Source of the DNA: an uncultured Candidatus Saccharibacteria bacterium
GTDB taxonomy: Bacteria > Patescibacteriota > Saccharimonadia > Saccharimonadales > Saccharimonadaceae
Assembly (NCBI GenBank): GCA_964578645.1
Contig: CAZODR010000003.1
Coordinates: 13,951-77,950, forward strand
Length of the DNA stretch: 64,000 nucleotides
Direction of reading: 5' to 3'
How positions within the stretch are numbered: the first letter of the stretch is position 1; each line of letters starts with the position of its first letter. The notes beneath the pieces are model-generated. The model had not been told where the DNA came from, made no database searches, and worked only from the letters and a program-made list of their open reading frames with translations. A program made the position numbers and the translations under genes. Shown piece after piece: positions 52,515 through 57,913 of the stretch.

Positions 52515-52544
52515 TTGACTTTTGCGACCGGGGGGGGGTATCAT
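52515..52544 (+). promoter_or_regulatory. Promoter with a G9 homopolymer in the spacer
   Basis: TTGACT (52515..52520), an 18-nt spacer ending in nine G (52530..52538), then TATCAT (52539..52544). Confidence 0.65.
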
Positions 52545-52579
52545 AGAAGTATAGTAATAAACATAAACAGGAAAATAAT

Positions 52580-53319
52580 ATGAAGAAGATGAGAAACAAA
52601 ATCGTCGCCACGACTTTGGCTGCGGCGGTGCTCGCGGCGGGATTCTGCTCATCTATACGCTGGGTAGTGCCGAAGGTCATATTACTGGCACGATCGACGA
52701 CTTCATTGCTAGAGATCTGAAGGTTCCGGATGCCTATAAAGACAAAACTTTCGGCGAGCTAATCGCTTATGGAAAGACTATTTCCGCTTATACTTCTGAC
52801 GCCGCGTTTAAGGAGGTCATCGATGACGACCAGGCGATTTATGATCGCGGTGTGAAATCTCTGCGCACCTATCTTCCCGTGGTCGATTCGACTTTGACCG
52901 GGCTGGATACGAAGACTGGCGACGAATTGCTCGCGCTTTATGATGCACTTCCGATTGTCAAGGATGGAAGCTACAAACCTCTGATTTCGGCGGCTAATTT
53001 TGCTGGTGGGCTTGTGCTGGCTTGCGAAGCTAATCCCGCTAATTGTAATAGCGACGAAGCGACAAACGCTTATGCTACGCTCGTGTCCGAAGCCACGAAA
53101 CTCAACAAAGATTTCACGGTCAACTTGTCCGGCCTGACGCCATTGCCCGAAGCTTCGGCTGCCGCGCCCGCCGCTCCTAATACCGGCTCGCTCAGCAAAG
53201 AACTTTCCAGCACGCTCGTCCAAGTCGCGCTCGGCCTAGTTGCCGGAATCGCGGGCGTCTCCGGCGCTGTCTATACCGCGAAGCGTTACCTCTTTAGCCC
53301 TCTGAAACGGCGCAAATAA
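52580..53319 (+). pseudogene. PNTG-sorted surface protein gene with interrupted frame (signal/TM part in one frame, body in another)
   Basis: ATG 52580 encodes MKKMRNKIVATTLAAAVLAAG.. and hits TGA at 52718. The frame of ORF 52852..53319 is open from 52579 but has no start there. One extra G at GGG 52639..52641 would fuse them. C-terminus is AAPNTGS, then TM, then KRYLFSPLKRRK. Confidence 0.6.
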
Positions 53320-53421
53320 CCGTCGGCTGGTAAAAGCACTGCCCAGGCGGTGCTTTTTCATGTTTTGCCTTCGCCCAGATCGGATTATTGACTATAATGA
53401 AGATAATGGTATTATATAAAT

Positions 53422-54627
53422 ATGAACCGTATTCCACTGCCGGAGCGTATGCGCCCCCAGAGTTTAGACGAAGTCATTGGCCAGTCCGAAATTATCGGCC
53501 CGGGGAAAATTTTGACCGAAATTGTGAAAAAAGCCGAACCAGTGAATTTGATTTTTTGGGGTCCGCCTGGGACCGGGAAAACGACTTTGGCGCGCATTCT
53601 CGCGAAGGAATATCAGGCCGATTTCGTCGAGCTTTCCGCGGTTACGGCGCACAAAAAAGATGTCGAAGAAGTCGTCGAACGCGCGAAAATTAACTGGAAC
53701 CTGAAAATTCGCACCGTGCTTTTTGTCGACGAAATTCATCGGTTTAATAAGGCGCAACAGGACGCATTTCTGCCTCATGTTGAGTCTGGCCTGATCATTC
53801 TCATCGGCGCGACGACCGAGAATCCGAGCTTCGAAGTGATTTCGCCGCTGATTTCGCGTTCACGCGTCGTGGTCGTCGCGCCCCTCGACCACGCGGCGAT
53901 CTTGGCCGTGTTGCGCCGAGCGCTAAAGGCCGAACAAGCCGAAGATCGCGTGTCCGAAGATGCTCTGGCCTACATTGCCGAATTGTCGGGTGGCGATGCG
54001 CGCTCGGCGCTCGGCGACCTCGAACTCGCCTTGAATTTGGCCAAAAAGGTCGACCGTTCCGTCGTCGAAACCGCCGTCGGCAAAAAGATGCCGCTCTACG
54101 ACAAATCCGGCGATTATCATTACGACAACATTTCCGCTTTTATCAAGTCCATGCGCGGCTCCGACGTCGATGCGACGCTGTATTATCTCGCGCGCATGGT
54201 TGCGAGCGGGGAAGATCCGAAATTCATCGCCCGGCGCATGGTAATTTTTGCTTCCGAGGATATTGGCATTGCTGGCAACGGCGCTCTTAACCTTGCCGTA
54301 AGCGCTTTCGAGGCTATCGAGCGCGTGGGTATGCCCGAAGGCGGCATCATCCTCAGCCACGTTGCGACGGTTCTCGCGAAGGCGAAGAAAAATCGCGAGG
54401 CCTACGACGGCTGGGCTCGCGCGCAGGCGCTCGCCCAGAAGACCATGGGTTGCCCCGTCCCGACTTGGCTGCGCAATGCTCCGACAAAATTGATGAAAGA
54501 TCTCGGCTTCGGCAAGGGTCAGAAATGGGAGGCCGGCTTCCATCTCGACAAAAACTATCTCCCCGACGAGATTAAAAACGAAAAAATCTTTGGCCAGCCC
54601 AGCAACTACGACCACAACGCGAAATAA
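53422..54627 (+). CDS. rarA: Replication-associated recombination protein A (AAA+ ATPase)
   Basis: WGPPGTGKTTLA, LFVDEIHRFNK and the MgsA C-terminal region (YDNISAFIKSMRGSD, YYLARM). Confidence 0.92.
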   Translation: MNRIPLPERMRPQSLDEVIGQSEIIGPGKILTEIVKKAEPVNLIFWGPPGTGKTTLARILAKEYQADFVELSAVTAHKKDVEEVVERAKINWNLKIRTVLFVDEIHRFNKAQQDAFLPHVESGLIILIGATTENPSFEVISPLISRSRVVVVAPLDHAAILAVLRRALKAEQAEDRVSEDALAYIAELSGGDARSALGDLELALNLAKKVDRSVVETAVGKKMPLYDKSGDYHYDNISAFIKSMRGSDVDATLYYLARMVASGEDPKFIARRMVIFASEDIGIAGNGALNLAVSAFEAIERVGMPEGGIILSHVATVLAKAKKNREAYDGWARAQALAQKTMGCPVPTWLRNAPTKLMKDLGFGKGQKWEAGFHLDKNYLPDEIKNEKIFGQPSNYDHNAK

Positions 54628-54654
54628 AAGGCCAACCTCGCGGTCGGCCCTGCT

Positions 54655-55425
54655 TCAGTTTGCAAATTCTTTGCGCAAGCATCGCTTGACTTCGTAGAAC
54701 TTCTGCTTTACTTTTCCCCACCCTCGTGGTGGAATGTTAAAGCGCGATGTCATCATCCAAGTCATTTCGTGTGCTTCCTGCCCTGACATCCAGTACTCTT
54801 TATACTGAAAATCCTCGTAGGTTGACACGCGATAATCTTCCTGTTGTACCCCATCCTCAAAGTGGATGTAGACTTTCTCGAGATGGACCACCTGGCCAAA
54901 TTCGCCCTGCTCAGGAATAATCCCGATATAACAGTATCCTGGTTGGAGTATGGCGTCTTCAATCTCAATCCGGTTGAAATAGTTCAACCCTAAGAGCTCT
55001 TCCCAGTTCTTAGCGTCGAACCGCCGTCTGCCGCTATTGCCGTGGTTCTTTGGCCACCGCCCCGTAGCCTCATAAATTTTCCACGCGCAGTAGCTCGTGC
55101 TGCGCCGAACGACAAAGCCCGCCGGGTCAGAAATCAGGTTATAGCCCTCCAGACTATCATCCTCTTCCCAGTCCGCAAATCGCGGATCGCGGTATGGCCA
55201 AGGATAAGTATTCCACTTATCAAACGGCGCAACCTTGACCGCATGCTCGACCTTCTTCGGCGGCCTCATGAGGAAGAAAGGCATCATGCCGGGCTTTGCC
55301 CGCAAAATCGCAATTCGTCCCATCATCCGATAGCCCGTCCGACAAATCTTGCGCACTATCCGTATCCGATTCCATCTCGGACAAGAGTTCCTCGCCAAAA
55401 AGTTTGCAAATTTTAAATAGTTCAT
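54655..55425 (-). CDS. CHAP-domain (Cys/His amidohydrolase-peptidase) protein without signal peptide
   Basis: STSYCAWKIYEATGRWP (catalytic Cys region), then GEFGQVVHLEKV (His region). Basic N-terminal 60 aa. Start moved to ATG behind AGGGGAGG. Confidence 0.7.
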   Translation of the reverse strand: MNYLKFANFLARNSCPRWNRIRIVRKICRTGYRMMGRIAILRAKPGMMPFFLMRPPKKVEHAVKVAPFDKWNTYPWPYRDPRFADWEEDDSLEGYNLISDPAGFVVRRSTSYCAWKIYEATGRWPKNHGNSGRRRFDAKNWEELLGLNYFNRIEIEDAILQPGYCYIGIIPEQGEFGQVVHLEKVYIHFEDGVQQEDYRVSTYEDFQYKEYWMSGQEAHEMTWMMTSRFNIPPRGWGKVKQKFYEVKRCLRKEFAN

Positions 55426-55571
55426 AAAGAACACCTCCCCTTTCTCCGGGCCAAAAGGCCCTTATCTCTTAATTATATCAAAGATCTCATGAAAAGTCAA
55501 GGTTTAGCCCTGAATTTCCGCCAAAATTGCAAAAATTCTCTTTAAAATCTGCGATATTTCCAGCCTACCTA

Positions 55572-55600
55572 TTGACAAAAAGCGAAATCTGTGCTACAAT
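55572..55600 (+). promoter_or_regulatory. Consensus promoter (module family) with no ORF behind it
   Basis: CTATTGACA-17-TACAAT with TGTG extended -10. Confidence 0.7.
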
Positions 55601-55605
55601 GGGAG

Positions 55606-55727
55606 TATAGGGTAATTCTACCCTAAAATTTTGAGACCTTTGCTGAGCGAAGGTTCAGCATCTCGACGCAGCCTGGATTAACGCTGCTCTCGAAGCCCTT
55701 CAGGCCCGCCTTTTCAGGCGGGCCTTT
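55606..55727 (+). ncRNA. Candidate ~120-nt small RNA (promoter to terminator, non-coding)
   Basis: Starts with the hairpin TAGGGT-AATTCT-ACCCTA and has a second hairpin ACCTT-TGCTGAGCG-AAGGT. Ends with the GC-rich stem AGGCCCGCC-TTTTCA-GGCGGGCCT followed by TTTCT. Only a 16-codon TTG ORF without SD is present. Confidence 0.45.
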
Positions 55728-55828
55728 CTATACCCCTAAACCTCCGACCCGGCCGATGGATGTCTCGGCTTTATCATTCTGGAAAACCTTTCCTGTGCTA
55801 TAATGGAAAAGTAAATAAGGAGTTTTTT

Positions 55829-56359
55829 ATGGCAGATTTCAACAAAATTTTGACCCCCGGTGATTATGAAAACGGCGAAATCAACGTCGTCGTCGAGATT
55901 CCGACCGGCTCGAACCACAAAGTCGAATGGGATCGCGAGAATGCTTGCTTCATGCTCGACCGCATCGATCCGATCGCTTTTGCGAAGCCGACGAATTATG
56001 GTTTCATCCCCCAGACTTTGGACGAAGATGGCGACGAGCTCGACGTTTTGCTCATTACCGACCAGCCGCTTCCGACCGGAGTTTATACCAAGGCTCGCGT
56101 CCTCGGCGTCATGAAATTTGTCGATGATGGCGAAGTCGACGACAAGATTATCGCCGTTGTCGCCGACGATCGCAATAACGGCGACTTGATCCAGAAGCTT
56201 GAGGATTTGCCGAAGCGCCTGATTGAACAAATTGAGTTCCATTTTAATCACTATAAAGATCTGAAAAAACCGGGTACGACCGAGGTCAAAGAATTCGCCG
56301 GCCTCGACGACGCTAAGACCGTCATCAAGGGCGCGATTGATCGCTGGAATGCCCAGTAG
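55829..56359 (+). CDS. ppa: Inorganic pyrophosphatase (family I)
   Basis: VVVEIPTGSNHKVEWD and DGDELDVLLI signatures. Start moved to MADFNK behind AAGGAG. Confidence 0.92.
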   Translation: MADFNKILTPGDYENGEINVVVEIPTGSNHKVEWDRENACFMLDRIDPIAFAKPTNYGFIPQTLDEDGDELDVLLITDQPLPTGVYTKARVLGVMKFVDDGEVDDKIIAVVADDRNNGDLIQKLEDLPKRLIEQIEFHFNHYKDLKKPGTTEVKEFAGLDDAKTVIKGAIDRWNAQ

Positions 56360-56457
56360 CTCGAAGTAGTTCGAAGTAGATCGCCAGGGAATTATCCTGC
56401 ATATGAAACCAGCTAAGCCGAAGCTTGGCTGGTTTTGTTCAGCATTGTGCCAAAATC

Positions 56458-56498
56458 CGGAAGGAATTCCTTCCGTTTATTATAACGTGTGTTATAAT
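56458..56498. promoter_or_regulatory. Candidate operator region of the TetR/ABC operon
   Basis: 18-nt perfect palindrome CGGAAGGAATTCCTTCCG (56458..56475). Inverted repeat TTATAAC-GTGT-GTTATAA (56480..56497) overlaps the -10 TATAAT (56493..56498). Confidence 0.5.
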
Positions 56499-56530
56499 AA
56501 CAAGTGTTATAAAAGGGTAAATTACAAATC

Positions 56531-57136
56531 ATGACTACAAATCGCAAAATCCAAAGAGATGATGTCCTCCGAGCAGCGCTAGAACTGCTGAAGATCGAGG
56601 ATATCGACGCCTTGACTGCGCGCCAAATCGCCAGCCTTCTCGACTGTTCGGTGCAGCCAATTTTCTATAATTTCGAAAACATGGAGGAGCTAAAGACCGC
56701 CGCCATCGCTGCCGTCCACGACATTTATGTTTCCTATATGAATGCCGGCGCCGCTGCTCCCAGCGCGTATAAGGGCATGGGCCTGGCCTATATTCGCTTT
56801 GCGCGTGATTATCCGAATTATTTCCAGCTGCTTTTCATGCGCGAGAGCAATCTCAGCCCCGAGTCTTTCATCTGTGAGGACGACTCTTCGAACGAGATTA
56901 TTCGCCATGGCATGGAGATGACTGGCTTTAGTGAGGAAGTTCAGCGACCTTTCCATCTCAAGGTTTGGATTTTTACTCATGGTCTCGCGACCTTGGTTGC
57001 GAACGGCACGGTGCGCTTCACTGACGCCGAAATCGAGCGTCTATTGACCGAGACCGTGCGCGCTCTAGTCGTGGGGATGAAACATCAACCCGGATCGAGC
57101 CATCATCGGCCGAACTCCGCTCCGGATCGGAATTAA
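56531..57136 (+). CDS. TetR-family transcriptional regulator
   Basis: N-terminal HTH (LTARQIASLLDCSVQPIFYNFENMEEL) and an all-helical C-terminal domain. Confidence 0.88.
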   Translation: MTTNRKIQRDDVLRAALELLKIEDIDALTARQIASLLDCSVQPIFYNFENMEELKTAAIAAVHDIYVSYMNAGAAAPSAYKGMGLAYIRFARDYPNYFQLLFMRESNLSPESFICEDDSSNEIIRHGMEMTGFSEEVQRPFHLKVWIFTHGLATLVANGTVRFTDAEIERLLTETVRALVVGMKHQPGSSHHRPNSAPDRN

Positions 57137-57148
57137 TGAAAGGAAAAT

Positions 57149-57913
57149 ATGTCGAAAAACACTATCGCGGTCAAACATTTGACCAAAACTTATAAAAATC
57201 TTACTGCCGTTGACGACCTGAGTTTTACGGTTAAAGAGGGCGAGATTCTCGGGCTTCTCGGTCCGAATGGCAGCGGCAAGACGACGACGATTAATTGCAT
57301 TCTCTCGCTTTTGAAATACGATCGCGGCGAGATTGAAATTTTTGGAGAAACCATGTCGCCCGCGGCCTATGATCTGAAGCGTCAGATTGGCGTCGTTTTC
57401 CAGGAAGTCGCAGTTTTTGACGAGCTCAACGTTTATGATAATATCGATTTCTTTTGTGGGCTTTATATCGCCGACAAAACGACCCGCGCGCAGTGCGTTT
57501 CCGAGGCGATCGCGCTCGTCGGTCTCGAGAAATATCGCAAATTCCTGCCGAAACAACTTTCCGGCGGTCTGTTGCGCCGTCTTAATATCGCCTGCGGAAT
57601 TGCGCATCGCCCGAAACTCATTTTCCTCGACGAACCGACCGTCGCCGTCGATCCCCAGAGTCGTAATCATATTCTCGACAGCATCGCCGCTTTGCGCGCG
57701 GGCGGCGCGACCATCGTCTACACTTCGCATTACATGGAGGAAGTCGAACAACTCTGCGACCGCGTGATTATTATCGACAGCGGAAAAGTCATTGCGAGCG
57801 GCACTTTGGCCGAGCTGAAAAAATTAGTCAAGGCCCAGCCCGCTAAGCCCGTAGCCGGACCAACATTGAACGACGTCTTTCTTGAGCTGACGGGGAAGGA
57901 ACTGCGCGACTAA
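57149..57913 (+). CDS. ABC transporter ATP-binding protein
   Basis: Walker [10 protein letters not shown], signature LSGGLLRR and Walker B LIFLDEPT. Confidence 0.92.

Follow-up and report, generated by a model that had tools for sequence, protein, structure and literature searches.

An ORF-less promoter-to-terminator unit upstream of ppa in a Saccharibacteria genome is probably one allele of a strain-variable accessory-gene slot

Between a divergently transcribed gene for a 256-aa protein and the pyrophosphatase gene ppa there is a short stretch of DNA with a near-consensus promoter, several potential hairpins and an intrinsic terminator. When this region was read from the sequence alone, within a window of 64,000 nucleotides (the whole stretch of DNA that was analysed), it was proposed to be a candidate sRNA gene of ~120 nt. 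Degraded genes, mRNA leaders and transcriptional noise can all give rise to young, lineage-specific sRNAs. The question raised by this locus is whether the unit is a dedicated regulatory RNA, a leader of ppa, or what is left of something else. Our analysis indicates that it is probably the ORF-less allele of a strain-variable accessory-gene slot between the CHAP-like gene, as we call the divergent neighbour, and ppa.

Architecture of the unit and searches for relatives

The elements described in the sequence-only reading were all found in the DNA (Table 1): a promoter-to-terminator unit ahead of ppa with a 5' hairpin, a GC-rich terminator stem and two more stems between them, followed by a separate promoter element belonging to ppa. 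The unit promoter matches the consensus at 11 of 12 hexamer positions and additionally has the TG; its -10 hexamer is TACAAT (55595-55600) with TGTGC directly 5' of it. It heads the list of eight promoter-like sites detected in 54000-57500, by comparison with an average of 3.2 in shuffled sequences. Transcription would start at about 55606-55607 on the plus strand, because the RNase P RNA of this genome (C5:58973-59408, 233 bits) begins 6 nt past the -10 of a promoter with the same consensus; this spacing supports both the promoter consensus and a start near 55607.

Table 1. Features of the unit and of its flanking genes (window coordinates).
Feature	Position	Strand	Description or basis
Divergent neighbour gene (CHAP-like), 256 aa	54655..55425	-	promoter 55500..55472, +1 hairpin, Shine-Dalgarno site, ATG
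Sigma-70-type promoter	55572..55600	+	-35 TTGACA 55572-55577; 17-nt spacer; extended -10 TGTGCTACAAT 55590-55600
5'-terminal hairpin	55608-55625	+	TAGGGTA-ATTC-TACCCTA; -8.2 kcal/mol; z = -2.5
Hairpin 2 (composite)	55631-55666	+	predicted fold
Inner stem-loop of hairpin 2	55641..55660	+	TGCTGAGC-GAAG-GTTCAGCA; predicted fold
Allele-specific 24-nt filler	55662..55685	+	CTCGACGCAGCCTGGATTAACGCT; absent from sister-variant contigs L113 and L118
Hairpin 3 (small)	55668-55687	+	predicted fold
3' UTR and intrinsic terminator	55686..55732	+	common to the accessory gene of the sister variant
-35-less extended -10 promoter of ppa	55794..55804	+	TGTGCTATAAT; sequence motif
ppa ORF	55829-56359	+	Pfam Pyrophosphatase, E = 5e-47

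No ORF of 20 or more codons is present inside the unit, and the longest frame is indeed the previously reported one of 16 codons from a TTG that lacks a Shine-Dalgarno site. The unit has a promoter and an intrinsic terminator of its own with no ORF between them, as an sRNA gene should. The complete RNA (55603-55732) has a predicted fold of -55.6 kcal/mol (z = -5.86), most of whose stability comes from the terminator and the 5' hairpin. The terminator consists of a 10-bp, GC-rich stem (AGGCCCGCCT / AGGCGGGCCT, 55702-55725) followed by the T-poor tail TTCTATA, and by itself folds at -21.2 kcal/mol (z = -6.7). The middle 76 nt (55626-55701) reach a z-score of only -2.2, so that structure beyond the terminator and the +1 hairpin is modest.

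Searches for related RNAs covered the genome (0.92 Mb in 43 contigs, 48% G+C, 94% complete; the window lies on contig C3) and collections beyond it. At the gathering score, Rfam 15 returned three tRNAs only from the entire window, none of them in the unit. The best match at E <= 10 in 55430-55840 was RF02869 (ncS025), with 27.5 bits where the cut-off is 46; the terminator hairpin accounts for most of the columns that match well, and several of the 5'-hairpin pairs are non-canonical. All other matches in this interval scored 20 bits or less, and SRP RNA, 6S RNA, tmRNA and RNase P RNA gave none at E <= 10, in agreement with what had been judged by eye. SRP RNA (RF00169 and RF01854; small and large), 6S RNA (RF00013) and tmRNA (aragorn -m) were likewise not detected anywhere in this 94%-complete genome, where they may be divergent or unassembled. 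The idea that the unit itself is a divergent SRP or 6S RNA was rejected, since it matched neither and is not conserved.

Conservation was looked for at several depths. By BLAST against 368 species genomes of the genus, the body of the unit (55606-55740) gave only 16-39-nt matches with E >= 0.003, and with 55560-55740 as the query against 60 relatives the promoter part alone was matched (query 1-71). For a covariance model, the three assemblies with the ORF-less allele described below were used; being identical across the RNA (55607-55732), they provide no covariation. Run against 150 relatives, the model produced two weak matches of 30.4 and 25.9 bits, both rejected because the alignments depend on generic features of hairpins and terminators. 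An exact 24-mer of the unit had no match in a genome-contig collection, nor did an exact 22-mer in a metagenome-contig collection. The conservation and covariation that had been looked to as support for an sRNA were thus not forthcoming. Perfect antisense matches to the unit in the rest of the genome do not exceed 13 nt (E = 1.3), a length at chance level; an RNAduplex target scan, which ignores accessibility, was uninformative. A literature search found nothing usable on sRNAs of Saccharibacteria.

The CHAP-like gene is patchy, with relatives in 103 of 368 genus genomes, and fast-evolving, its best match in another species being 66% identical; in metagenomes only relatives at 35-39% identity were found. 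Its original label, 'CHAP', depends on motifs read by eye only, as no Pfam family was matched at E <= 1. The ppa gene is preceded in most of the 29 genus relatives read (loci L032-L060) by a -35-less -10 of the ATGCTATAAT type and then AAGGAG, whatever gene lies upstream, and that upstream gene varies; the unit was not found ahead of ppa in any of the 29. In several of these relatives the GC-rich terminator of the upstream gene directly precedes the ppa promoter, for example as CCGGCGG(G/C)TTTCT-ATGCTATAAT in two of them, and terminator and ppa promoter look like a conserved junction.

Two alleles between a common leader and terminator

A relative of the 256-aa neighbour protein with 99% identity led to a Logan contig, L113 (SRR28237138), that is 97.9% identical to window 52530-55661. 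It keeps the promoter, the +1 hairpin (with an A-to-G change that leaves a G-U pair) and the inner stem of hairpin 2, the loop of which is GAAA as compared with GAAG here. Directly after 55661 it diverges, continuing as GTACCTTGGAAGGAGAGTGATCTT-ATG-AGT-CTT-TTT... (MSLFAKFSS...), that is, with a canonical Shine-Dalgarno site and an ATG-initiated ORF that runs to the end of the contig. In L113 the inner hairpin 2 is consequently upstream of a Shine-Dalgarno site and start codon and forms part of a 5' UTR.

An exact look-up of the ppa protein retrieved three further Logan contigs, L117, L118 and L119. L118 is from the same sample as L113, and we infer that the two separate contigs belong to one genome. 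It carries the end of one reading frame followed by an ORF of 189 aa, the TAG stop codon of which is one base before GCTCTCGAAGCCCTTCAGGCCCGCC..., corresponding to the window from 55686 onward; from 55699 to 56633, a span that takes in the terminator and ppa, its identity with the window is 100%. The 189-aa ORF is a singleton ORFan, without a Pfam family, without a copy in this genome (tblastn) and without a relative among 5.8 billion proteins. In the 5' arm of the L118 terminator (L118:~725-752, which corresponds to window 55702-55715) a stretch of 14 nt is tandemly duplicated, AGGCCCGCCTTTTC; this could be real variation or an assembly quirk.

Two alleles thus exist between a common leader and a common 3' UTR and terminator: one with a Shine-Dalgarno-to-stop stretch of at least two reading frames, the other with 24 unrelated bases. 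The stretch replaced in the sister variant runs from a point 8 nt ahead of the Shine-Dalgarno site to 1 nt past the stop codon. The ORF-less allele is not an assembly artefact, because it is also present in L117 (SRR31732372; 99.98% identical over 4291 nt) and L119 (SRR32508451; 98.3% identical). The flanks of the ORF-less allele are collinear with those of the gene-bearing one (L113 to 55661, L118 from 55686) and the coding part is missing, as would be the case for a gene remnant; leftover coding sequence, which a remnant might also contain, was not found, as the filler matches nothing in the available parts of L113 and L118. No source for the filler was found in the rest of this genome either, the middle of the sister cassette being unsequenced. 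The filler contributes most of hairpin 3 and, to hairpin 2, the 3' half of the outer stem, so that this outer stem and hairpin 3 were created by the junction and are absent from the sister leader.

These data change the standing of the original proposal. That the unit runs from promoter to terminator without an ORF, that ppa has its own promoter and that no known RNA family is involved all remain; a conserved sRNA gene it is not, and its 5' half is the 5' UTR, and its 3' part the 3' UTR and terminator, of a protein-coding gene in the sister variant.

Across 55595-55730, L119 does not differ from the window at all, but it has five differences in the ~100 nt that separate the terminator from the ppa ATG; against the contig-wide rate, the lack of differences across the unit is not significant (p of about 0.09). 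This pattern could reflect constraint or, equally well, a recombination edge at the terminator. The flanks of the sister variant are mosaic, with 97.9% identity on the left side of the slot and 100% on the right; together with the L119 pattern, this suggests recombination breakpoints at the slot. The unit promoter is intact in both of the assemblies that include it.

A generic front end and the slot in other species

The presence of a strong promoter followed by a stable hairpin is not specific to sRNAs in this genome: the promoter and 5' hairpin of the unit are the ordinary front end of its transcription units, because the minus-strand neighbour gene (with its +1 hairpin GGGCC-AAAA-GGCCC) and other consensus promoters share the same layout. 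A pattern search found ~140-180 near-consensus promoters of the form TTGAC(A/T)...TGTG(C/A)TA(T/C)AAT, most of which lead into GGAAGTAT(A/G)GG and a hairpin where the RNA is predicted to begin, and for most of these a Shine-Dalgarno site and an ORF come next. The same promoter type precedes tRNA genes. A ~45-nt stretch of the unit, including the promoter spacer, recurs with 84-93% identity in at least 12 other places in the genome, ahead of unrelated genes, and a search of 36 genus relatives found it in 16. In this genome mRNAs, too, are generically built with a perfect promoter, a +1 hairpin and a terminator, and for that reason an ORF-less promoter-to-terminator unit alone should not be taken as evidence of an sRNA gene.

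Several other short units were also found. At four sites outside the window, C4:~19223(-), C12:~5722(+), C2:~21601(+) and C3:~87365(+), a consensus promoter has a hairpin and T-run within about 45-100 nt downstream, and no ORF was detected; these units may be sRNAs, attenuators or scars. A 24-copy family, with members at window ~24964, ~32752(-) and ~37399 and 21 more elsewhere in the genome, has the layout promoter, hairpin AAGCCTCAAYGAGGCTC, GATCTGTAGTG and GTGCGCAGCGGC, opening frames of ~62 aa (VRSG...FPLRCLA); some copies have an insert of ~45 nt before the GTG, and one copy was found to be without a Pfam match. In one relative (G029, locus L035), between mgsA and ppa, a consensus-like promoter leads directly into the hairpin GGTGCGAGCAATCGCTCGGCGCC and TTTTT, an element of ~40 nt from promoter to terminator; a similar hairpin, CGAGCAATCGCTCG, follows a promoter at C7:~31945 of the present genome.

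The state of the slot itself differs between species. In genomes G356 (in which the CHAP-like protein is 66% identical) and G346 and in Logan contigs L114 and L116, the CHAP-like gene and ppa are divergent and ~110-195 nt apart with no extra unit. Genome G061 (54%) has a similar promoter and +1 hairpin in the slot (TTGACAAAAATTAAAATCTGTGATACAAT ... TCTACCCAAATTTT), driving an unrelated membrane/coiled-coil ORFan of 204 aa, with a similar terminator just before the -10 of ppa. This likeness extends only to elements covered by the promoter and hairpin consensus of the genus; the two slot contents may be orthologous. A 10-nt match, AGCGAAGGTT, lies near the start of the 204-aa ORF, about 0.08 such matches being expected, which is near chance. 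Orthology with this ORF was not adopted: the match is suggestive but could be chance, and the ORF is nearly an orphan, with a single weak relative in the genus.

Origin of the ORF-less allele and comparison with known systems

We therefore propose the following, on the strength of the sequence comparisons. The segment 55572-55661, with the promoter, the +1 hairpin and the inner hairpin 2, would be the promoter and 5' UTR of an accessory gene, and 55686-55732 would be the 3' UTR and intrinsic terminator of the same accessory-gene region. In the sister variant, with flanks 98-100% identical, the same two parts enclose the Shine-Dalgarno site, the ATG and the two or more reading frames; here the coding part would have been lost or replaced, leaving the 24 unrelated bases between leader and terminator. 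If the promoter fires, as expected from its near-perfect consensus, the product would be a non-coding RNA of ~125 nt in which a leader is fused to a terminator. The unit is probably transcribed in this way, and the RNA is, most likely, not a dedicated regulator but a by-product of the loss of a gene or the replacement of a cassette; we infer that it lacks a function. Deletion appears favoured over insertion as the direction of change: the gene-bearing form has the architecture of most consensus promoters here and other species with an empty slot all lack the promoter, and for both reasons loss or replacement of the coding part is preferred. A single simple deletion does not explain the allele, since the filler is absent from the sequenced parts of the sister cassette. 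Against the reading as a by-product, the junction made extra pairing (the outer stem of hairpin 2, and hairpin 3), as a functional RNA might have, and the intact promoter and the lack of differences in L119 are a weak hint of constraint.

An alternative is that the unit is a young trans-acting sRNA, a leader-terminator fusion co-opted as a base-pairing regulator and kept by selection within the species. The near-consensus promoter, a stable hairpin at the 5' end and a terminator hairpin of the kind found in stable sRNAs, the occurrence of the allele in three independent assemblies and the absence of substitutions in the unit of a strain 1.7% divergent elsewhere would all fit such an RNA. We nevertheless regard this as improbable: no relative was found in the 368 genus genomes by sequence or in 150 by structure model, the antisense complementarity does not exceed chance, the 5' half is demonstrably an mRNA leader in the sister variant and the absence of substitutions is not statistically significant. 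A role in cis, in which the strong promoter and a leaky terminator (TTCTATA) add regulated read-through to the output of ppa's own promoter, would suit the position of the unit on the ppa strand ~100 nt upstream and the short T-tract after the stem, a site that a simple terminator scan did not list. Such a role is unlikely because most of the relatives read have retained the -35-less -10 of ppa itself and all 29 lack the leader; with the same hairpin acting as the terminator of an accessory gene in the sister variant, a single dominant fold with an isolated terminator and no alternative anti-terminator pairing, and no riboswitch or leader family at threshold (Trp_leader at 12.9 bits against a cut-off of 41), we give it very little credence indeed.

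The order of events could also be the reverse. The ORF-less form may be older, an empty 'socket' in which Shine-Dalgarno-to-stop cassettes are swapped between a conserved promoter and leader and a conserved terminator; the exchange could occur through flanking homology or by an unknown site-specific process. The end points of the replaced segment, so near to the Shine-Dalgarno site and the stop codon, keep cassette exchange alive as an explanation, and the different ORFan in the same place in G061 behind a similar promoter and hairpin and before a similar terminator, the repetition of the ~45-nt promoter module with its spacer before unrelated genes and the mosaic sister flanks are in keeping with it. 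On the other side, the similarity between this genome and G061 is confined to genus-wide consensus elements and may be convergence, no recombination-site motif or recombinase gene was seen adjoining the slot, one slot with three states was examined, and, contrary to what simple insertion requires, the 24-nt filler shows no duplication and does not occur in the flanks of the filled allele as far as these are sequenced; on balance we think this order of events unlikely. A more far-reaching version, which we put forward as speculation and hold to be rather doubtful, is that in these Saccharibacteria-like genomes accessory ORFans are exchanged as Shine-Dalgarno-to-stop cassettes in fixed sockets that each combine a reusable promoter/+1-hairpin module with a terminator, with 55572-55732 as an empty socket that still fires and the RNA of which is raw material for a new sRNA. 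Such an RNA might already be maintained, given the identical sequence in three assemblies and the possible recombination edge at the terminator. If other copies of the promoter module also proved to have end points of cassette precision, this would point to an unrecognised way of accessory-gene turnover in these reduced genomes. For the preferred reading, as an accessory-gene slot from which the coding part has been lost or replaced, the locus offers a clean natural example, with both alleles known, of a short non-coding unit arising by gene removal from expression signals.

By comparison with known systems, the unit shares with independently transcribed, intrinsically terminated sRNA genes a sigma-70-type promoter, the lack of an ORF, a length of ~125 nt, stem-loops and a GC-rich 3' hairpin, but unlike these it is not conserved beyond strain level, shows no seed or target complementarity above chance, has a short U-tail and has a 5' half that is an mRNA leader in the sister variant. 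Its small hairpin followed by a GC-rich terminator hairpin resembles RF02869 ncS025 (Burkholderia sRNA 25), although with 27.5 bits against a gathering score of 46 and in an unrelated organism it is not a member. Like strain-variable accessory-gene islands, the site between the CHAP-like gene and ppa is empty, occupied by an ORF-less unit or occupied by different ORFans depending on strain or species; it differs from such islands in that no mobility genes adjoin it and in being a single transcription unit, the variable part of which is almost exactly the Shine-Dalgarno-to-stop stretch. Finally, as in sRNAs derived from gene remnants or orphan units, promoter and leader survive without the ORF and are joined to a terminator, and the unit is confined to one species, with no covariation and no known target. 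It departs from those cases in being known from sequence alone and in that both alleles have been seen in near-identical strains, by which its origin is documented.
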